From the IMG/VR virus record IMGVR_UViG_2541047877_000006: a stretch of 53,577 nt of DNA; one strand, written 5' to 3'. Position 1 is the stretch's first letter, and the number at the start of each line of letters is the position of its first letter. The notes under the pieces are model-generated. The model saw nothing but the letters and a program-made list of their open reading frames with translations, had not been told where the DNA came from and searched no databases. The position numbers and the translations under genes were made by a program. Positions 3,969-43,392 of this stretch are shown here, one piece after another. The DNA comes from a virus (taxonomy: Duplodnaviria > Heunggongvirae > Uroviricota > Caudoviricetes).

Positions 3969-5087
3969 TTACAAAATGGAATATTCAGGGTAATAAACAA
4001 AGCGCCCGATTTCTCCATGATCCGGGCTGTAAATAATCACCGCTGCCAGCCGCCGCGACCGCCAACCACCATTCGTTGAATAAGCGTCTTTGCCAGCTAA
4101 CGTGCCGTGATACTCAACAACGCCTAACGATGACTCAATCAGCCGTTGATGATGCCAGTGCCCGCAATGAGCGTAAACAGCCGCAGATTTACCGAAATCT
4201 TCCCGCCAGTCAGATACGCAGGCCGCCAACAAGTTTTCCGGTTTTTTGATAGTATGACCGTGATGATATGCAAGGAATGTTTTGCCGTACTGTGTGTGGT
4301 GGACGATAGCAGGGGACACGTCAACCGTCACGCGCGGTTCATCTTCATAAAAAGCCGCCAGCGCCGCACGTAGCCAGATCATCCCTGATTGGTCGTGATT
4401 ACCGGATAATGTCTGGATCTCGACATCCTTATGATTTAGTAACATCTTCCCGACCGCACGCCGGACCGACCGGATCGCCACGTAAACCAGTTTTGCGTAG
4501 CGTGAATCGCAATCCAGGACGTGATTGCTTGATGGCGTCACTGGTAACAGGCCGTCAGTGTGAAGCACATCACCGCCGAGAAGTAAAACAGCCTTTTCAG
4601 ACATTGGCGCAGCGCCTACCGCGTAGTCGAAGAAATCATTTAGCACGCGTTCAGCGATCCCGGTGTCGTAGCTTTCGCCGCATTCAGCTTTATGAGCAAG
4701 CGCCCCGATATGTAGATCGAATACCGGATAAAGGGCCAGGCTTTTTTGGAAATCAATTTCCGGCACTGGCACGGCCTCCGCGCGTGGCATATCTTCCGTG
4801 AAAGCATCGCAAGCCGCTTGCATTAGCCTTTCCATTTCATCGCGATCACGGGCTGTTTTAATCCAGCGCATAATCACATTGCCATCCTTATCGACGAGCA
4901 AAGACTCACCATTGATGCCAAAACCAGGCGCGCGACGCGTGGATATTAAACCGCGCTTTGCCAATCGTGCGCCCAGGCGTTCGACGTTGCGTTTTGCCAT
5001 TCCATATTCTTCGGCTATTTGCTTGTAAGTTTTCCCATTGTTGTATTCAGCGATTAATTGCTCGTCGCTGATCTTTCTTTGCGACAT
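3969..5087 (-). CDS. HTH domain fused to calcineurin-like metallophosphoesterase
   Basis: N-terminal HTH (KTYKQIAEEYGMAKRNVERL); C-terminal motifs DLHIG, GGDVLH, GNHD, GHWHH (Mre11/SbcD-like set). Confidence 0.6.
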   Translation of the reverse strand: MSQRKISDEQLIAEYNNGKTYKQIAEEYGMAKRNVERLGARLAKRGLISTRRAPGFGINGESLLVDKDGNVIMRWIKTARDRDEMERLMQAACDAFTEDMPRAEAVPVPEIDFQKSLALYPVFDLHIGALAHKAECGESYDTGIAERVLNDFFDYAVGAAPMSEKAVLLLGGDVLHTDGLLPVTPSSNHVLDCDSRYAKLVYVAIRSVRRAVGKMLLNHKDVEIQTLSGNHDQSGMIWLRAALAAFYEDEPRVTVDVSPAIVHHTQYGKTFLAYHHGHTIKKPENLLAACVSDWREDFGKSAAVYAHCGHWHHQRLIESSLGVVEYHGTLAGKDAYSTNGGWRSRRLAAVIIYSPDHGEIGRFVYYPEYSIL

Positions 5088-6451: not shown

Positions 6452-6583
6452 TTTAAAATCCTCTCTAAAACGCTCTATAACGAGCTAAACCGCTAAAGAT
6501 ATGAATCGTAGCACCATGCGTGTTTTAGCTCGCTGGTGAGGTTGTTTTGTGGGTAATTTTGGATTTTTGCGGATCGTGGTTGG

Positions 6584-7630
6584 TCAAAGAGCGCCTGCGC
6601 GTGTGTCGCGTAGCGTTTTTGGTTTAAGCAGGAAATCAAGTGTCGCTGTGAAGCCATTGCCGAAGTAAAAATCTGAAGCCGTGTTTTTGAATGTTTCGAA
6701 GTAGGCGACAAAGCCGTTAATGCTTTTGTCTTTCAGGTAGTCAGTGAACGCATAGATCTTGCGTTCAAGATCCCGATCCAGTTCGGCAGGTGGTAACAGG
6801 CCGTCAAACGTGCTGTTAAATGCTTCCACCACGTCGGCAGCGTTTACAGTAGCTGATAGCTTGCGCCATTGCTCAGCGTCAGCCAGATACCCATCGAATT
6901 TAGTTACCCGGCAAATGTTGATAGGCTTAGGTGTTCCACCACGGCTGCGCCATTGCGTCAAAGCCCATTCGATTACTAATGTGATCTCATCCTCCGTGTA
7001 TGCCTTACGTGTTTTTGTTTCTGTCAGTAGTTCGATAAATGGCTTAGCATCACGACTCTTGCATCCAGCTTTGTCGTTGTAGAAGGCCAAGCAACGCAAT
7101 GCCGCTTCGTTTACGCCATCCTGATTGACCGTTTTTTGTCCATTTTCGCTAATACACGAAGTGTATATATCTTTTTCTCTTTCTTCTTCTACTTCTAATT
7201 CATGACCCTTTCCTGACCCGGTCATGACCCTATCATGACCTTTTGGTGTTGGATTGATTAACTTCTCTAATTTTAATTGCTCCTTCGCTGTGTTTATAGC
7301 AGCCCTATAAGCGCTCTTAGAAGTCATTGATTGGTCCAGCCTTTTTAATAACTTTAGGCAAGTTATGTGGCCTTGAGAACATTCGAACAAACCAATTTCG
7401 ATGAAGTATTTCATCATTTCTTCTATACGTTTTTCAGTAGATCCGACGTTTCGCGCAATGATTCTCGCGTCATGTCGTAGGTCAAAATTCAGATTGTGCT
7501 GATCTACGTCATAAGTTATTAGTTCGAGGCAATACCAATAAAGCCCGTACCCTTCCAGGCCATAATCTAACAAAACGTTTTGAAGTTTTTCATCGCGGTT
7601 CGCATCGCTGTCATGCTTAAACCACTTCAT
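6584..7630 (-). CDS. phage replisome organizer / replication initiation protein
   Basis: 348 aa; N-terminal MKWFKHDSDANRDEKL...GLEGYGLYWYCLE motif; same operon as helicase. Confidence 0.7.
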   Translation of the reverse strand: MKWFKHDSDANRDEKLQNVLLDYGLEGYGLYWYCLELITYDVDQHNLNFDLRHDARIIARNVGSTEKRIEEMMKYFIEIGLFECSQGHITCLKLLKRLDQSMTSKSAYRAAINTAKEQLKLEKLINPTPKGHDRVMTGSGKGHELEVEEEREKDIYTSCISENGQKTVNQDGVNEAALRCLAFYNDKAGCKSRDAKPFIELLTETKTRKAYTEDEITLVIEWALTQWRSRGGTPKPINICRVTKFDGYLADAEQWRKLSATVNAADVVEAFNSTFDGLLPPAELDRDLERKIYAFTDYLKDKSINGFVAYFETFKNTASDFYFGNGFTATLDFLLKPKTLRDTRAGAL

Positions 7631-7633
7631 AGA

Positions 7634-7891
7634 TCATCCCTCCGGCAACATCACTACATAGACATCACTGAATGCATCAAGACGACAAACAAATCCTTTA
7701 TCCATTAACGCGGCGAAGGCATCATGTACCGTATGAACAGGAAGTTCACACATTGCGGCTACTTCTTTGCGTGATGCATCATGTACCCGTCCTTTGTTAT
7801 CTGCCTTTTCAGCCAGAGCCATTAAGACAAGTTTTTGAATCGGGCTATTAAGTTTTACGTTCCATGCTTTACTAATCATGTTCATACTCAT
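7634..7891 (-). CDS. winged-helix/HTH DNA-binding protein in Cro position
   Basis: 85 aa from ATG 7891 (AGGAG SD); first gene of leftward operon, divergent from cI. Confidence 0.4.
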   Translation of the reverse strand: MSMNMISKAWNVKLNSPIQKLVLMALAEKADNKGRVHDASRKEVAAMCELPVHTVHDAFAALMDKGFVCRLDAFSDVYVVMLPEG

Positions 7892-13007: not shown

Positions 13008-13106
13008 CAGCGTGATTGCGATCACATAAATATACATTTTGTATTGTGATTGCATATCCGTTTTGTAAGCCGAAATCAAAAGGTTTACGGTGCGGAGGAA
13101 AACAAG

Positions 13107-16404: not shown

Positions 16405-16420
16405 TGTGATGCGGATCACA
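16405..16420. promoter_or_regulatory. CRP-box-like palindrome
   Basis: TGTGATGCGGATCACA matches TGTGA-N6-TCACA; flanked by inverted TACAAAATGG copies. Confidence 0.4.
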
Positions 16421-16541
16421 TAATGGCGCTTTTTGTCTTGTTTGGGGGTATCCATTTTGTATACTTCAAGCAAACAAAATGCTCTTTAAAAATCCGGCAG
16501 CGCTGAAATGCGTAGAAATCACCTGAAAAGGAGAGAGCATT

Positions 16542-20014: not shown

Positions 20015-20235
20015 AAATCTGGCAGGGTATCGACGTAGTTGATAATGAATTGTCTATGTTCGCCACTAACGGGAAACGCGTGGTGATCGCTACATGGACG
20101 CGCAACCATGATGATATAGCTTTTCGTCGCAAGGCTGCGGAGTGGCTTTTCTCTGATGAAGGCTACACGATGAATATCTCCCAGCTTGCCAGAATGAAGG
20201 ATGAAAAGCTGGTTGATAGTTACACAACTGCATAG
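20005..20235 (+). CDS. hypothetical protein (76 aa)
   Basis: ORF overlapping upstream stop. Confidence 0.4.
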   Translation: MELKIWQGIDVVDNELSMFATNGKRVVIATWTRNHDDIAFRRKAAEWLFSDEGYTMNISQLARMKDEKLVDSYTTA

Positions 20236-21660: not shown

Positions 21661-21774
21661 GGCGTTGGACAACCATAAATGTGATCTGTATCACAATGTA
21701 TACGAAATGGCATTGTTTCGACAGTGCCATTTTGTTATATATAAGCCACGGAAAGACGGAGGGGAGGCAAGAAG

Positions 21775-38050: not shown

Positions 38051-40393
38051 ATGGCTACCAGTGTAGGTACAATTTATTACGAAGTTGATGCGAAAACTGG
38101 TCAACTTCTCGTTGCACAACGACAGGCAGACCAGGCCTTTGATCGTATAGAGCGCGGCGCAAAACAGGCTGACCGCCAGGTAAACACCCTGAAAACATCC
38201 ATCAAGGCACTGACCAGGGTTATCCATCTGCTAATTGCTGCGGAGGCTGTGCGCCAATTTATGGATATGGCGGAGCAAGCAAAAATGCTTCGCGTAAAAA
38301 TCAAAATGCTTACGGGCGATGCGGAGTCCGCCGGACGGGTTTTCGACGGCCTGAAAGCAATATCCAGGGAGACGGGGCAGAGCCTGAAAGATACTGGCGA
38401 ATTATGGCAAGGCCTGGCTATCTCACTAAAAAACACCTCCGCTACGGAAGGGCAATTGCTTAACCTGGTTGGCACTATTCAGAAAATGGGTGCATTAGGC
38501 GGCGCGTCAGCGGAACAGATGTCTAACTCAATGCGTCAATTCCGTCAGTCTATCGACGGCGGTGTTCTTCGTGCCGAAGAATTTAACAGCCTGCTTGAAA
38601 ATACGCCGACCATCGTACAAACAATGGCCCGCCATATGGGATTATCAATGGGCCAGTTCCGCGCCGAAATGCTGGACGGCAAGATCACGGCTGAAAGGAT
38701 GGTTAACGCAATACAGGCGGCTACGCAGGAAACAAACGATAAGTTTGCTCAGTTGCCGCGCACATCCGGCATGGCTATCAATGAGCTTAAAGTAGAAATT
38801 ATGGGCCTTGTTGAGCAGTTGGATGATCTTTTTGGCGTGTCAGATGGCGTTGTTTCAGCTATCGACTTGATCACGAAAGGCGTTAAAGGGCTTGGCGATG
38901 GCGCTAAATTCGCTAAAACCTGCTTCGACACACTCAAAACGGCTGGTAGCGAATTTATCGACATGTTTGATGATGTGGCTGTTAAGGCTGGAGAGGTGGC
39001 AGAGAAGATCATCGCAATGGTGACGCCAATCAAGGCGCTAATGGATGGCTATAAATGGATGAAGGAGGTAGTAGGAGAGCAAACCGACGAATATAACAGC
39101 AACTACGAGAAGAAATACGGGAAGACCGTTGGCAAGGTCATGCAACTACAGGATGATCTGACCGCAGCAATCCAGGCTACAGAAGAAGCAAGGAAAAATG
39201 AACAGAATGCTGCCAATGACGGAGCGATTACCGGATTCGACAAGCCAGTAGACAAGCCGAAAAAACAGAAAAAAGAGAAGAAATCGGAAGCTGATCGGCT
39301 TGGTGACAAAGGTATAAGCGTTTCTGATCAGTACAACAAAGACGCCGCCGCCATGCGCAAAGCGTTGGAGAACGGCAAGGCCATTGATGCTGCATTTGCC
39401 CAGGGTAAAATCACGCTCCTTGAGTACCGCGCCGCGCAAAAAGGGATCGGCAAGGAACTGAAAGAAGAATTAGCACAAATTCCGGTAGATGAATTGCGTG
39501 ATAAATGGTCACAAATAGTAAGCCCGATGGATCAGCTAAAAGGCGAAGTTGACCCCATCCAGCAGGCGCAAAATGAATGGGCCATCCGTAAGCAAATGCT
39601 TATAGACCTGGGCGCTACTGAAGCGCAACAGAAACAGGAATTGTTAGCCTATGAGCAACAGATCCGCGATCTGAAATGGGAACAATGGCAGGCGCAAAGC
39701 GACACAAACGGCCTTATCGGTGATTGTGTTAATGGCCTTAAAGGCGGAATGAGTAATGCGCTTGTTGGCCTGTTAAACGGCACTCAATCATTGAGTGATG
39801 TTTTTGCTAACTTAGGAAGCAATATACTCGGCAATATCGGTAACAGACTCTCAGACATAGCTGCAAACTGGATAGCAGATCAGATCATGATGGAGACACA
39901 AAGCAAGGCCACGCAAACAAGTACAACAGCAAGCGCGGTAGCAGCTCAGGGAAGCATTGCTGCGGCGGCGGCCCCAGCAGCGGCGGCAACTGCGGCGTCA
40001 ACTGGCGGTAGCTGGGCGGCGGCTGGTTCGGCGGCGCTCACTGCGATCATGTCGCTGGCTACGTCAATTTTCGGCGGCGGTCGCTTTAATGGTGGTAGCG
40101 TCATTGGTGGTAATATGTACCGCGTAGGGGAACACAACAGGCCGGAGCTATTCCAGACATCTAACGGCAATCAATATATGATCCCTGGCGAGAACGGCAG
40201 AGTTATTCCGGGCCGTGATATTGGCGGCGGTGGCGGTATTAGTATGCCTGTCAGTATCAGCATTCAGACCACGAACGGATTCAGCGACGAAGACAGCCGC
40301 AGACTTGAATTAACAATGGAACGTGTAGCCATGAAAATGATAACAAGGGAATCTCAAAGACCAGGCGGAATGTTGCAACCTCGCCGCAAATAA
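38051..40393 (+). CDS. tail tape measure protein
   Basis: 780 aa; coiled-coil and Ala/Gly-rich repeats; between chaperone and M-like gene. Confidence 0.85.
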   Translation: MATSVGTIYYEVDAKTGQLLVAQRQADQAFDRIERGAKQADRQVNTLKTSIKALTRVIHLLIAAEAVRQFMDMAEQAKMLRVKIKMLTGDAESAGRVFDGLKAISRETGQSLKDTGELWQGLAISLKNTSATEGQLLNLVGTIQKMGALGGASAEQMSNSMRQFRQSIDGGVLRAEEFNSLLENTPTIVQTMARHMGLSMGQFRAEMLDGKITAERMVNAIQAATQETNDKFAQLPRTSGMAINELKVEIMGLVEQLDDLFGVSDGVVSAIDLITKGVKGLGDGAKFAKTCFDTLKTAGSEFIDMFDDVAVKAGEVAEKIIAMVTPIKALMDGYKWMKEVVGEQTDEYNSNYEKKYGKTVGKVMQLQDDLTAAIQATEEARKNEQNAANDGAITGFDKPVDKPKKQKKEKKSEADRLGDKGISVSDQYNKDAAAMRKALENGKAIDAAFAQGKITLLEYRAAQKGIGKELKEELAQIPVDELRDKWSQIVSPMDQLKGEVDPIQQAQNEWAIRKQMLIDLGATEAQQKQELLAYEQQIRDLKWEQWQAQSDTNGLIGDCVNGLKGGMSNALVGLLNGTQSLSDVFANLGSNILGNIGNRLSDIAANWIADQIMMETQSKATQTSTTASAVAAQGSIAAAAAPAAAATAASTGGSWAAAGSAALTAIMSLATSIFGGGRFNGGSVIGGNMYRVGEHNRPELFQTSNGNQYMIPGENGRVIPGRDIGGGGGISMPVSISIQTTNGFSDEDSRRLELTMERVAMKMITRESQRPGGMLQPRRK

Positions 40394-40398
40394 ACTAA

Positions 40399-40426
40399 AC
40401 CCCGGTGCAATGCCGGGGTTATTTTT
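40399..40426 (+). terminator. rho-independent terminator after tape measure gene
   Basis: ACCCCGG tgcaatg CCGGGGT hairpin followed by TATTTTT. Confidence 0.65.
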
Positions 40427-40479
40427 CGTATTTATAAACGACCATTCCGCGCGATATATCCCCTTTCGAATATCTCGAC

Positions 40480-40734
40480 TCACTTATGAGTGCCTTTCAC
40501 GCCACATAACTTGTTATAGGCATGGTGCTCAACAATTAACCAAACCTTCAAATCTTCGCTAAACAGCCTCCAATCAAGATTGATATCCATTTTGTATCCG
40601 TAACCGTCGCGTAACTTTTTGGGGTAAACTTCTTTTCTCAGAAAGGCTTTAAGTAATTCCTTACCTTTCTTGATGATCCGGTCCTGTGCGTTTTTCTGTG
40701 CTTTCAGATTTCTGTCAATCGCTACCAGTTTCAT
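40480..40734 (-). CDS. small basic protein (84 aa), second gene of minus-strand cassette
   Basis: MKLVAIDRNLKAQKNAQDRIIKKGK...; 14 nt downstream of 51-aa partner. Confidence 0.45.
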   Translation of the reverse strand: MKLVAIDRNLKAQKNAQDRIIKKGKELLKAFLRKEVYPKKLRDGYGYKMDINLDWRLFSEDLKVWLIVEHHAYNKLCGVKGTHK

Positions 40735-40751
40735 AACTCACCCCATCATCC

Positions 40752-40907
40752 TTAGTTAAGTGCCTTCAGGAAGAAGTCCCGGTATTCATCTTCTTTCGCA
40801 TTCATCATGAATTGACCGTATTTGAATGCGTCGTCGAAACCCTTAACGATTGCTATTTCCACTTGTTCGAATGCGTTATTTAGCATTACTACTACATAGC
40901 GTTTCAT
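40752..40907 (-). CDS. small protein (51 aa), first gene of minus-strand cassette
   Basis: MKRYVVVMLNNAFEQVEIAIVKGFDDAFKYGQFMMNAKEDEYRDFFLKALN; AGGAGG SD. Confidence 0.4.
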   Translation of the reverse strand: MKRYVVVMLNNAFEQVEIAIVKGFDDAFKYGQFMMNAKEDEYRDFFLKALN

Positions 40908-40947
40908 TTTGGGCCTCCTTCGTTGGTACTACTTTCTTCTTGCTTTC

Positions 40948-40987
40948 TATATACATCTTGTTGCGTGCTATGTGAAGCCATTTTGTA
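40948..40987 (-). promoter_or_regulatory. sigma70-like promoter for minus-strand cassette, with TACAAAATGG element
   Basis: Minus strand: GTTTACAAAATGG then -35 TTCACA, 17-nt spacer, -10 TATATA. Confidence 0.45.
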
Positions 40988-41017
40988 AACTAGCTATAAT
41001 CATTGTGACAATGATCT

Positions 41018-41042
41018 TATTTTTCGCGTAGAAGCGCGTAAA
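41018..41042 (+). repeat. 25-bp conserved element copy B
   Basis: TATTTTTCGCGTAGAAGCGCGTAAA; 23/25 identical to 28727-28751; next to palindrome CATTGTGACAATG. Confidence 0.5.
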
Positions 41043-41076
41043 GATATATACAAAATGTAACTTGTGGGGGGGTTTT

Positions 41077-41430
41077 ATGCCGGAAGTGTTCAGATGGACG
41101 CCGCAAAGAAGCTACAGCGTGACCAGGAAGCCAGACGTATCTGTTGTTAAGCTGGGCGATGGTTATGAGCAAAGACAGGTAAAAGGTATCAATCCATTGC
41201 TTGATAGCTACACCCTGGTGTTTAAAGGCAGTAGCGCCGGATGTGGTGATGGTGGAAACGTAGCAATCCAGGCGGAAGCATTCTTGAGGGCGCGCGGCGC
41301 GGTCGAGGCTTTTTACTGGTCGCCGTCAATGGATAACGTGCAAAGGCTTTTTGTCTGTCGGCAATGGAGCATGACTAAAGACGGGCCTTTGTACACGCTA
41401 AACGCAACGTTTGAGCAAGTTGTTGGCTAA
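41077..41430 (+). CDS. M: minor tail protein M
   Basis: FRW...V.FGDGY.QR...G.N....Y...F and C-terminal FEQVV as in lambda gpM. Confidence 0.85.
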   Translation: MPEVFRWTPQRSYSVTRKPDVSVVKLGDGYEQRQVKGINPLLDSYTLVFKGSSAGCGDGGNVAIQAEAFLRARGAVEAFYWSPSMDNVQRLFVCRQWSMTKDGPLYTLNATFEQVVG

Positions 41431-41627
41431 TGGGGGTTGTTATGTACGGGACTTGTGTAGTTGACAAAACTTACGCTTTTACATTGTTTGACGACTATGA
41501 GATCAACGACCTTACTGTAAAAGCTGACAACGGCGATATATGGTATCTTCACGACGTTGGTGATGGGTACGTTGGGTGTAGATCCCGGGAAGGGAAGGAG
41601 GTTTTATTTTTGGTTGATGGCGTATAA
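41430..41627 (+). CDS. hypothetical protein (65 aa)
   Basis: ORF between M-like and L-like genes; followed by terminator. Confidence 0.4.
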   Translation: MGVVMYGTCVVDKTYAFTLFDDYEINDLTVKADNGDIWYLHDVGDGYVGCRSREGKEVLFLVDGV

Positions 41628-41633
41628 ACACGA

Positions 41634-41658
41634 CCCCGCGCGAAGCGGGGTTATTTTT
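41634..41658. terminator. rho-independent terminator, possibly bidirectional
   Basis: CCCCGC gcgaa GCGGGG hairpin with T-run after and A-run before; between convergent genes. Confidence 0.6.
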
Positions 41659-41783
41659 ATTCTATTTCCATTAATGCTATATTTTCTGCTATCGTTTTCC
41701 AGTCCAGATCTACAGCATGAACGCCAAATACTATCAACCACATTATTATTAGCGCCAAAACTTCTATTTTTATAATCAGTCAC

Positions 41784-42032
41784 CTATAAGTTATCACGCA
41801 GATAATTAACGCCCTTATCAGTGACGAATGAATGGTTAACCTGGTTTTCATCCGTCATGATGATGAATAACTTTTCATGTAGGTATTTCGCTTTCGGGTA
41901 CAGCGTTAAACAGACCTGGTACAGTATCCCGCGCTCAATCAGCAAATCAATAAATTCGTGTTCATGATAACCGATGAGGCGGGCGGCCTGTTTCAACGTG
42001 TACACATAATCACCGTGATTGCGCCGCCCCAT
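41784..42032 (-). CDS. HTH-like DNA-binding protein (82 aa), third gene of cassette
   Basis: YTLKQAARLIGYHEHEFIDLLIERGIL resembles HTH; AAGG SD; 9 nt after gene B stop. Confidence 0.45.
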   Translation of the reverse strand: MGRRNHGDYVYTLKQAARLIGYHEHEFIDLLIERGILYQVCLTLYPKAKYLHEKLFIIMTDENQVNHSFVTDKGVNYLRDNL

Positions 42033-42041
42033 GTTGCCGCC

Positions 42042-42389
42042 TTATTTATCGAATGCTAAAAGGTTATCGATACAGAAATCTTTCGCCGCTTTTTCGTATT
42101 CGCGTTTTGCTTCTGGATCGTCAGCCGGGAAACCTTTTGCGTGTATTTCACCAGGGCAAGACTGGTCCATAGAATCTGCATAATAAGCAGTGAAGCTACC
42201 ATTAATATCTTTCGGGTTCATATCTTCCACCTCATCAACTATATGTACCGGATTAGCAGCATATTTCACTGGATGGCCTAAACTACATTCAAGAATCCTG
42301 CCTTCTTCCAGGGCTACTTCTTCGCTATCAAATAATCCGAAACACTCCTTGCTACCACTTAACCACACATCAAGACTGTATTTTTTCAT
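42042..42389 (-). CDS. acidic protein (115 aa), second gene of cassette
   Basis: ATG 42389 with GAGG SD; acidic; overlaps first gene by 20 nt. Confidence 0.45.
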   Translation of the reverse strand: MKKYSLDVWLSGSKECFGLFDSEEVALEEGRILECSLGHPVKYAANPVHIVDEVEDMNPKDINGSFTAYYADSMDQSCPGEIHAKGFPADDPEAKREYEKAAKDFCIDNLLAFDK

Positions 42390-42558
42390 TTTTGTTAGCC
42401 TCATATTTGACAGGTTCGATCTGGTATCCCAAAAGGCGGTCATCCTCAGCAAGTAAAAGCGCGTCAACCAATGCTTCACCCTCGTCGTCATACAGGGCGA
42501 TAACCTTTTCCCTACCGTCTGTCATGAATACCGTCAACTTCCATAGCTTTTCAGTCAT
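42370..42558 (-). CDS. small acidic protein (62 aa), first gene of cassette
   Basis: MTEKLWKLTVFMTDGREKVIALYDDEGEALVDALLLAEDDRLLGYQIEPVKYEANKNEKIQS; GGAGGTG SD. Confidence 0.45.
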   Translation of the reverse strand: MTEKLWKLTVFMTDGREKVIALYDDEGEALVDALLLAEDDRLLGYQIEPVKYEANKNEKIQS

Positions 42559-42604
42559 AACGCACCTCCGCGCCATTTTGTTAACTATGCTTCCGTTTGA
42601 GTAA

Positions 42605-42643
42605 AATATACATATTGTAAAAACCGCGATCAATCCATTTTGG
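42605..42643 (-). promoter_or_regulatory. sigma70-like promoter for three-gene cassette
   Basis: Minus strand: CCAAAATGGA then -35 TTGATC, 17-nt spacer, -10 TATATT; same layout as pL-like promoter. Confidence 0.5.
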
Positions 42644-42687
42644 TATGATTTAGCGTGACGCAGATCACAGAATGACAAGGTGAGAAA

Positions 42688-43392
42688 ATGCGCAATATTC
42701 CGAGAGAAATGATTATTGATTCCGTCGATGCCGGAGTCGGCGCGGTAATTGACTTGTTTGAATTAGACCTCACGCCCCTGGGTGGCGAGGTTATCCGCTT
42801 CCATTCCGGCGTGAATGGCTATTACGGCCCGGTTATCTGGAAGGGGGTGGCTTACAACAGCTACCCTATCGAGGCCACTGGCTTCGAAATGAAAAACGAG
42901 GGTGTCTATTCACGCCCGCAAATGGTTGTAGCCAACATTGGCGGCCTAATCACCGGGATGAATAACGATTTCAACGACCTGCGAGGAATGAAAGTTACAC
43001 GCCGCCAGGTGGAAGTAAAATACCTGGACGCCATCAACTTCCCCAACGGCAACCCGGATGCAGATCCGTCTATCGAGGCGGTGTCTTTTTACGTCGTTGA
43101 GGCGATGAGCGAAGAAACAGCCGACCAGGTGCAATATGAGCTGTCAACGCCAATTGATGCTGACAAGGCGGTTATCCCAGGGCGCACAATCCTTGCTGAC
43201 GTTTGCCAATGGCAATATCGCGGCGACGGTTGCGGATACAGTGGCGGCCCTGTAGCTACTGATAAAGACGAATCGACCAGCGATCCAAAGCTGGATAAAT
43301 GCAGCCACCGCCTGAGCGGTTGCCGTTTACGTTTCCCGCGCCCGAATCCGTTACCAATTTCATGTTTCCCAGGATCGAGCAAGGTGGGTTGA
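42688..43392 (+). CDS. L: minor tail protein L
   Basis: LDLTPLGGE, YPIEATGFE, RRQVEVKYLDAINFPNGN, C-terminal Cys cluster as in lambda gpL. Confidence 0.85.
   Translation: MRNIPREMIIDSVDAGVGAVIDLFELDLTPLGGEVIRFHSGVNGYYGPVIWKGVAYNSYPIEATGFEMKNEGVYSRPQMVVANIGGLITGMNNDFNDLRGMKVTRRQVEVKYLDAINFPNGNPDADPSIEAVSFYVVEAMSEETADQVQYELSTPIDADKAVIPGRTILADVCQWQYRGDGCGYSGGPVATDKDESTSDPKLDKCSHRLSGCRLRFPRPNPLPISCFPGSSKVG

Follow-up and report, generated by a model that had tools for sequence, protein, structure and literature searches.

The stretch of DNA analyzed here, IMG/VR record IMGVR_UViG_2541047877_000006 (53,577 nucleotides (nt); hereinafter, the window), is, judging by its sequence similarities, that of a mEp021-like (mEpimmI) temperate coliphage. 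Across 41400-42900, identity is 84-88% with all seven sequenced mEp021-group (mEpimmI) coliphages and 99.7-99.9% with prophages in seven complete Escherichia coli genome records, mostly from human isolates; 35 of 5,426 complete E. coli genomes contain a match. The mEpimmI phages are temperate, Nus-dependent, non-lambdoid siphoviruses that are frequent in human faeces and, in a collection of human-faecal coliphages, were as frequent as the lambdoid phages (PMC11893012). Within the tail gene cluster, where the plus-strand genes are annotated in RefSeq as those for the tape measure, phage tail protein (M), minor tail protein L, C40 peptidase, tail assembly protein and tip fibre, three small genes, denoted g1, g2 and g3, lie on the opposite strand, between L and the pair formed by M and an open reading frame (ORF) of 65 amino acids (aa). 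Comparison of loci indicates that this cassette is a dispensable, group-specific accessory moron rather than a tail component, and we consider it a good candidate for a module of interference with the host or with rival phages, as opposed to a demonstrated anti-CRISPR locus.

The first-pass annotation described three tightly packed minus-strand genes of 62, 115 and 82 codons, the first two encoding acidic proteins and overlapping by 20 nt, and examination of the ORFs bears this out (Table 1). The gap between g2 and g3 is 9 nt, and Shine-Dalgarno-like sequences precede g1 (GGAGG), g2 (GAGG) and g3 (AAGG). All three are real genes because all three evolve under purifying selection: when the window is compared with its relatives by the Nei-Gojobori method, the ratio of nonsynonymous to synonymous substitution rates (dN/dS) is 0.26 for g1, 0.27 for g2 and 0.12 for g3, the values for L, M and the 65-aa ORF being 0.04-0.08. 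Two elements of this initial description nevertheless have to be amended. First, the 62-aa g1 and the 20-nt overlap are not general features but belong to one allele; in most relatives, g1 is 51 aa long and stops before g2, and through a 2-nt difference (CAAATGAGAGG in the relatives vs CAAATATGAGG here, 42370-42400), the window allele has lost the stop that otherwise follows residue 51 and has a tail of 11 more residues. Second, the gene count of three is too low given that the window cassette, by comparison with its relatives, has a fourth small gene that has decayed. This gene is intact in 26 of 40 distinct relatives, where it encodes a peptide of 38-49 aa from a regular start codon (MKIEVLALI.MGLIVFGVHA...), and is absent in 10; what is left of it in the window is a 33-aa ORF with a TTG start (41758..41657). 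The claim that the cassette is bracketed by a terminator and L stands, the hairpin being located at 41632-41652; its T-tract is strong on the plus strand and weaker on the minus strand.

Table 1. Features of the cassette and of its control region (window coordinates)
Feature	Coordinates	Strand	Remarks
CRP-consensus-like inverted repeat TGTGA-TCTGCG-TCAC(G)	42655..42669	-	conserved half-sites
Motif copy CCAAAATGG abutting -35	42635..42643	-	copy of a motif over-represented throughout the phage
-35 hexamer TTGATC	42628..42633	-	97% column identity in 39 relatives
-10 hexamer TATATT	42605..42610	-	invariant in 39 relatives; 17-nt spacer
18-bp near-palindrome TACAATATGTATATTTTA, candidate operator	42602..42619		overlaps -10
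Second motif copy ACAAAATGG, 5' leader of g1	42573..42581	-	99.7% conserved
g1	42370..42558	-	62 aa, 14 acidic vs 8 basic residues; PHROGs phrog_29559
g2	42042..42389	-	115 aa, isoelectric point (pI) 4.48
g2, N-terminal domain (residues 1-56)	42222..42389	-	hypervariable; predicted beta-beta-alpha-beta
g2, internal Shine-Dalgarno GAGGTGG	42227..42233	-	5-6 nt (42226..42222) before the Met57 codon (42221..42219)
g2, C-terminal module (residues 57-115)	42042..42221	-	nearly invariant
g3	41784..42032	-	82 aa, pI 6.96; stand-alone KilAC/ANT domain, predicted winged-helix fold
Remnant of the fourth gene, single-pass membrane peptide	41657..41773	-	ATG of relatives is ATA here (41773..41771)
Bidirectional intrinsic terminator	41632..41652	both	from hairpin scan; shared with the M-orf65 transcript; annotated on both strands in mEp021

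The 129-nt intergenic region between L and g1 holds four conserved elements. The promoter TTGATC-17-TATATT (42633..42605, minus strand), proposed at first pass as sigma70-like, is returned by a promoter scan, but the scan match alone is not above chance (6 promoter-like sites in the region vs 6.2 expected), and we accept the promoter because it is conserved across relatives, not because of its score. When 39 distinct relatives are aligned, the spacer has the same length throughout, and the intergenic region shows 92% column identity, compared with 82% for the g1 coding sequence; the motif copy in the leader is kept even where g1 is a divergent allele. The 18-bp near-palindrome, which reads TACAATATGTATATT(T/G)TA and becomes perfect (TACAATAT-GT-ATATTGTA) in the relatives with G at the polymorphic position, is unique in the window (0.06 occurrences expected). 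Among 2.9 million viral contigs, it was found once per mEpimmI-type contig and in two unrelated contexts (5 contigs); these contexts, one of them AT-rich, have no coding similarity, and the idea that the palindrome is shared with other phages was rejected in favor of chance. From its sequence and position, the near-palindrome is a good candidate operator. The promoter was also read for a LexA box, and this candidate was rejected, the only match being CTGT-N8-TCAC and not CTGT-N8-ACAG.

Upstream of the promoter and about 20 nt upstream of the L start codon, which is on the opposite strand, lies an inverted repeat that matches the CRP consensus core at 9 of 10 positions. Among the 39 relatives, its half-sites are 99% conserved and its 6-nt spacer 80%, and because the half-sites are fixed while the spacer varies, the element bears the signature of a protein-binding site. 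If transcription starts about 7 nt after the -10 hexamer, the center of the site is at approximately -63.5, or at -62.5 in the relatives with a 1-nt deletion. That CRP itself binds here is offered as a hypothesis, not as a finding.

How does this unit relate to the tail genes that surround it? When the window proteins were compared by tblastn with 51 related loci that carry the cassette, g1-g2-g3 were found between L and M/orf65, on the opposite strand, in all 51. What varies is the additional content: optional genes of 75-93 aa between g2 and g3 (mEp021 gp72 and others) or of 67 aa after g3, and one or two tiny membrane peptides before the terminator. In one more relative (L094, IMGVR_UViG_3300045988_076424; 7574-7780 in the cassette sense), the promoter, palindrome and leader are kept up to AACAAAAT, and the 3' end of M follows; the deletion removes g1, g2, g3, the terminator and the 65-aa ORF, and the M and L genes are retained. 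A moron in Hendrix's sense is a promoter-gene-terminator unit located between late genes. The cassette is assigned to this class because it has a conserved predicted promoter and a terminator of its own and because M and L are adjacent in L094 save for the promoter remnant. It resembles the lambdoid morons, such as lambda bor and lom and the morons of HK97, in being an autonomous, dispensable unit between two genes of a late operon that is absent in one relative; it differs from them in comprising several genes, an operator-like palindrome and a predicted internal nested start, and in being present in nearly every member of the group instead of sporadically.

Another backwards unit is located between the tape measure gene and M (40480-40907, minus strand; promoter at about 40940-41014, terminator at 40398-40420). 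Its products are a 51-aa protein (phrog_29810) and a ParE-like toxin of 84 aa (Pfam PF24732, E=9e-12), which from their sequences are a probable toxin-antitoxin (TA) pair. The promoter of this unit, TTTACAAAATGGC-TTCACA-17-TATATA, is laid out like that of the cassette, and a perfect 17-bp palindrome, ATCATTGTCACAATGAT, precedes it. Other insertions in the tail region of the relatives consist of HNH endonuclease genes and a gene for a zinc-ribbon protein (L001 (mEp021), 658-1992 and 6489-7055; L004, 86-592) and sit in the gap between the tape measure gene and M and before J. The gaps of the mEpimmI tail operon thus appear to be general hot spots for accessory genes.

The location within the tail gene cluster could be taken to mean that the cassette proteins are structural or assembly accessories of the tail that happen to be encoded on the other strand. 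We regard this explanation as highly improbable. The genes run on the opposite strand with a promoter and a terminator of their own, L094 keeps M and L while the cassette is deleted, and in the mEp021 record, gp20 and gp41 are labelled virion structural whereas the cassette genes gp71-74 carry no such label. Homology of the cassette proteins to structural tail components was looked for in the library searches and none was found; a tail role is unlikely because of this lack of structural homologies and because a ParE-like TA moron with the same promoter layout occupies the neighboring gap.

Turning to the proteins themselves, g1 and the N-terminal domain of g2 are, from sequence comparison, paralogues of each other, both being small, rapidly evolving domains that occur as discrete alleles. 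The similarity between g1 and residues 2-46 of g2 is significant (BLASTP E=8e-5, 35% identity). Across the relatives, the identity of g1 ranges from 44 to 100%, and residues 1-56 of g2 fall into several deeply diverged, discrete types in the family alignment, with dN of 0.49 and saturated dS, compared with dN of 0.09 for residues 57-115. In some relatives, g1 is 87-90% and g2 62-73% identical to the respective window protein, and in others, the reverse is the case; because the alleles assort independently, g1 and g2 do not form an obligate matched pair. Neither protein has a match in Pfam, NCBIfam, PADLOC or the PDB sequences, PHROGs holds both solely as unannotated families, and when 1.84 billion representative proteins were searched exhaustively by HMMER, the profile of the g2 family yielded 15 matches, essentially its own family. 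The predicted structure of the N-terminal domain of g2 resembles DUF7336, a resemblance that is structural only (Foldseek E 5e-3 to 0.1, TM-score 0.7-0.8 on the target), given that neither g1 nor g2 matched DUF7336 in Pfam at E<=1. Weak matches of g2 to PDB sequences (rRNA methylase, cytochrome c nitrite reductase) were rejected, with E values above 0.3. The RefSeq name "transporter" given to homologues of g1 (WP_086611599.1 in L006 and WP_085654716.1 in L007) looks like an annotation artefact; we doubt it because it finds no support in the profile libraries and g1 is a soluble acidic mini-domain.

The C-terminal module of g2 is nearly invariant, and its structure prediction is of low confidence. 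The sequence (A/G)AGGTGG precedes Met57 in every relative, and GGTGGAA is invariant in 40 of 41 distinct sequences, synonymous positions included. Furthermore, stand-alone homologues of the module, 56-60 aa long, begin at the same Met (L052, 3971-4153; P0087; P0089), and they reside in unrelated elements, among them a 121-kb viral contig (L052, IMGVR_UViG_3300045988_157310) and a 58-kb phage contig (P0087). From these sequence features we infer a fusion as the origin of g2 and, in addition to the full-length protein, the probable synthesis of a 59-aa product that begins at Met57. In L052, immediately after the 60-aa homologue of the module (80% identity) comes one of the membrane peptide (3971-4301), and neither g1 nor g3 is present. 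This gene order suggests a functional link between the module and the membrane peptide, and because L052 carries the module without g3, the function of the module should be independent of g3. The L052 element itself had no BLAST match in the phage or plasmid collections. The module also matched OmpA-like repeats in three large repeat proteins, with E values down to 5e-9; this similarity was judged chance or compositional and rejected because a short HAKGxPADDxEAK motif is repeated many times in these proteins and the rest of the OmpA-C signature is missing.

The initial statement that none of the three proteins is recognizable does not hold for g3. This protein scores 29.4 bits against the Pfam ANT/KilAC family PF03374 (gathering cut-off 25.3, E=1.1e-6), with residues 10-82 aligned to positions 23-105 of the 108-position profile, and the RefSeq name is likewise KilAC domain protein. 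The conserved motifs described for KilAC are an AKxLxL-like helix 1 and TxKG near the C-terminus (bioRxiv 10.1101/2024.01.05.574328); g3 qualifies as a member because its motifs QAARLIG (residues 15-21) and TDKG (residues 71-74), both invariant or nearly so in the family, match them. The helix-turn-helix (HTH)-like segment noticed previously is part of what is predicted to be a MerR/Xis-type winged helix, a fold that matches DNA-binding winged helices. Helix 2, the presumptive recognition helix, is HEHEFIDLLIER; its acidic character, along with the neutral pI of the whole protein, argues against a classical DNA-reading helix.

In evolutionary terms, g3 is almost invariant among the relatives (dN 0.016), and even its dS is low, 0.18 compared with 0.70 in the neighboring L and M, which points to recent recombinational spread or to a constraint at the level of DNA or RNA, such as might come from late antisense transcription. 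A word-based search for g3 retrieved only seven 90%-identity clusters, all at least 74% identical to it; among isolated phages, the next-best matches, at 32-38% identity, are the C-terminal domains of larger Rha/antirepressor proteins of Vibrio, Cronobacter and Hafnia phages. The possibility that g3 is Ipe, the haemolysis-inducing protein of mEp021 (an ORF of 72-83 aa), was rejected, GenBank placing ipe at gp29, far from the cassette.

What is known of KilAC domains comes from a few experimental studies. The 103-aa CreP of Acinetobacter baylyi, a stand-alone KilAC protein, is bacteriostatic in E. coli and causes filamentation, and FtsZ weakly co-precipitated with it (bioRxiv 10.1101/2024.01.05.574328). 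The KilAC domain of AriS from a Listeria phage suffices to block the SOS response, probably at RecA (PMC9043618), and the report on phi11 Gp07 includes the statement that its KilA-C domain causes filamentation (PMC5944126). These published experiments show host-directed activities rather than promoter repression. Like CreP, the C-terminal domain of AriS (phage phi10403S), phi11 Gp07 and P1 KilA, g3 passes the PF03374 threshold over nearly the whole domain, and like CreP, it is a stand-alone domain of about 80-100 aa; it differs from these proteins in that the similarity is distant only and in being phage-borne and preceded by two acidic proteins, whereas CreP is encoded on the chromosome, with a CRISPR effector as its repressor.

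We tentatively prefer to read the cassette as a host- or conflict-directed module; in this reading, g3 has a conserved protein of the host as its target, whereas the targets bound by g1 and g2 are variable. The contrast between one conserved and several variable targets is suggested because g3 is almost invariant while g1 and the N-terminal domain of g2 diverge fast and assort independently. This scenario builds on gene structure, conservation, dispensability, KilAC membership, folds and paralogy, which are established, and adds to them a timing of expression, targets and a phenotype that we infer. RNA polymerase would start at 42633-42605, read through g1, g2, g3 and the membrane-peptide remnant, and stop at 41652-41632. 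Late rightward transcription would have to pass the terminator to reach L and would run antisense through the cassette; because of this antisense arrangement, the cassette is probably expressed in the prophage state or early rather than late. As a minimal KilAC protein, g3 might act on a conserved host protein in the manner of CreP and phi11 Gp07 (division arrest) or AriS (RecA/SOS). The small acidic g1 and the two-part g2 would serve as binders, with the variable domain tracking variable targets in the host or in rival phages, and the conserved C-terminal module of g2 would also be made separately from the internal start. The near-palindrome over the -10 hexamer would probably provide negative feedback, g3 being the obvious candidate binder, and the CRP-consensus-like site may tie expression to host physiology.

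Several observations weigh against this scenario. The KilAC phenotypes come from distant homologues (35-38% identity at best), and those of CreP and AriS KilAC were obtained by overexpression. The predicted fold of g3 matches DNA-binding winged helices and a unique palindrome lies on its own promoter, features that fit a regulator equally well. The stand-alone C-terminal module of g2 is found in elements without g3, and therefore, the cassette genes need not act together. The distance between the CRP-like site and the -10 hexamer differs by up to 4 bp between the assignable sites, the two perfect sites being at about -59.5 and -60.5, and because of this scatter, strict class I activation by CRP is not fitted.

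The regulator-like features of g3 count in favor of the interpretation put forward at first pass, an anti-defence operon of the acr-aca type, in which g3 would be an autorepressor that acts on the palindrome to damp a strong promoter and g1 and g2 would be acidic inhibitors of CRISPR-Cas or other defences. The layout proposed at that stage was confirmed with respect to the promoter, the acidic pair and the last gene with a predicted winged helix. The near-palindrome and the placement of variable genes between a conserved promoter and a conserved last gene, both typical of acr-aca loci, come in addition. Ties to CRISPR or to a known anti-defence or defence family did not materialize. As in acr-aca loci (e.g., acrIF1-aca1 of JBD30, inside the structural region), a short operon with its own promoter sits among structural genes, the small acidic proteins come first and a small conserved HTH-fold protein comes last, an inverted repeat, here a candidate operator, lies on the promoter, and variable content adjoins a conserved anchor gene. 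Specifically, g3 is the last, small and most conserved gene, with a MerR/Xis-type winged HTH fold; the near-palindrome that overlaps the -10 hexamer is unique to the cassette; the variable genes (alleles of g1 and g2, the optional 75-93-aa and 67-aa genes) adjoin the conserved promoter and g3; the low dS of g3 relative to L and M is as expected of a recombination anchor; and the payload consists of small, acidic, fast-evolving proteins. However, profile and sequence searches of PADLOC, Pfam, NCBIfam and PDB, with no dedicated anti-defence hidden Markov model library among them, recovered KilAC for g3 and no match to an anti-CRISPR, Aca or defence family for any of the three proteins. To our knowledge, KilAC is not among the described Aca families, so that g3 falls outside them; moreover, its helix 2 is acidic and the protein is not basic. 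The two upstream genes always belong to the same two families and vary as alleles, with no swapping of unrelated genes, and the cassette is oriented against the late operon. The literature on KilAC weakens this interpretation further. We consider the acr-aca hypothesis, the main rival of the preferred reading, somewhat unlikely, and given the published KilAC activities, interference with the host seems at least as likely. In terms of organization, the cassette is an accessory moron that is acr-aca-like, the resemblance being one of layout only.

The bacteriostatic activity of CreP in E. coli and the neighborhood of a ParE-like TA moron of the same promoter design 1 kb away raise the possibility of a TA or abortive infection system, in which the g3 KilAC toxin would be held by the C-terminal module of g2 and released when the hypervariable g1 and g2 sense phage proteins. 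Tightly spaced small genes, acidic proteins upstream of g3 and an operator-like palindrome over the promoter are all seen in type II and tripartite TA loci (omega-epsilon-zeta, PaaR-PaaA-ParE), and the invariant C-terminal module of g2 is co-conserved with the invariant g3 while the N-terminal domain varies as discrete alleles. Nevertheless, PADLOC has no match for any of the three proteins and Pfam recognizes only KilAC, so that no toxin or antitoxin family is apparent beyond the CreP analogy, on which the toxicity of g3 itself would depend, and a DNA-binding antitoxin fold is lacking. The C-terminal module of g2 occurs elsewhere without g3. The clean deletion of the whole cassette in L094 also has to be considered, although it is silent on addiction, the toxin and the putative antitoxin having been lost together. 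Altogether, such a system seems unlikely here. A more elaborate version, decidedly doubtful in our view, would make the cassette a new prophage defence with a tripartite sensor-antidote-toxin design, in which g3 is a bacteriostatic KilAC effector, the C-terminal module of g2 restrains it, the DUF7336-like domains of g1 and g2 are sensors for proteins of invading phages, and a CRP-type site gates expression; if true, this system would be unrelated to the catalogued defence families.

In phage P22, ant is under a regulated promoter of its own that lies outside the immunity region. A secondary regulatory region within the late genes that encodes a protein of an antirepressor-annotated family, as in P22 immI (ant, arc, mnt), is what the cassette could be taken for, and one of its products would then inactivate the CI-like repressor Rep, resulting in SOS-independent induction. 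This hypothesis would provide the other route of induction that seems to be needed in mEpimmI lysogens, which are not inducible by ultraviolet (UV) light and whose Rep has no Ala-Gly cleavage site (PMC11893012). Compatible with it are the annotation of the KilAC family as phage antirepressor, the conservation of Rep across the group (about 96%) alongside the similarly conserved g3, and the regulated promoter of the cassette outside the immunity region. But the cassette has no Arc/Mnt-type ribbon-helix-helix repressors, no full-length Ant and no sign of an antisense RNA; KilAC is not established as the repressor-binding part of any antirepressor; by sequence reading, the promoter has no LexA box; and if the target were an invariant repressor, the hypervariability of g1 and g2 would make no sense. 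We therefore view an antirepressor function as very unlikely.

The potential interest of the cassette stems from its presence in nearly every member of a phage group that is common in the human gut. The genes are already public, annotated as those for hypothetical proteins and a KilAC-domain protein, and the pangenome analysis of mEpimmI lists a KilAC-like protein as a near-core gene that was not studied further (PMC11893012). Not previously described, as it appears, are the cassette as a unit, the paralogy of g1 and the N-terminal domain of g2, the nested C-terminal module of g2, the candidate operator, the CRP-like site and the deletion variant. As a compact system, the cassette lends itself to studies of three questions: the activity of a minimal KilAC domain, this domain being linked in recent work to division arrest and SOS inhibition; the purpose of the very widespread phage proteins of about 55 aa that resemble DUF7336; and the way in which a phage group that is not UV-inducible manages its relations with the host and with co-resident phages. 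Should g1 and g2 inhibit host defences or rival phages, they would represent new families; should they have no such activity, the cassette would be one more uncharacterised moron.

Some minor features of the locus and of the phage genome merit mention. The 65-aa ORF (41430-41627, plus strand; phrog_3249) is conserved (dN/dS 0.08); it follows M in start-stop coupling and lies ahead of the bidirectional terminator. No known RNA families were found within 40300-43000 of the window. The TGTGAN6TCAC pattern of the CRP-like site is found at five places in the window (4559, 13012-13026, 16405-16420, 21680-21695 and 42655), with 7 strand-matches vs 0.22 expected. Two of these are perfect TGTGAT-N4-ATCACA palindromes, intergenic and upstream of the ninG/Q region and the lysis genes; mEp021 has equivalents of the palindromes at 16520 and 20097. 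The one at 20097, which corresponds to the window site at 16405, is covered by TERM_4, a feature annotated as a terminator.

The motif ACAAAATGG occurs 14 times in the window vs 0.81 expected, nearly always in intergenic or promoter regions (the sites include 3971, 8115, 8203, 8958, 16388/16452, 21727, 37974/37999, 40978 and 42573), and is enriched in mEp021 as well (5 vs 0.43 expected). For ACAAAATGG and the TGTGAT-N4-ATCACA palindromes, a Rep operator, a promoter element, a CRP site and a terminator hairpin were considered, and none of these readings fits all sites. The layout motif-N-(-35)-17-TATATW is common to the cassette, the ParE cassette and the promoter upstream of the N-like gene. 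On the reversed strand, the motif reads CCATTTTG and is directly followed by a -10-like hexamer (TAAACT, TATACT, TATAAA, TATATA or TATGAT). The motif may mark back-to-back divergent promoters, such as TGgTATGAT (42644-42649), which points into L, or else a site for a phage regulator.

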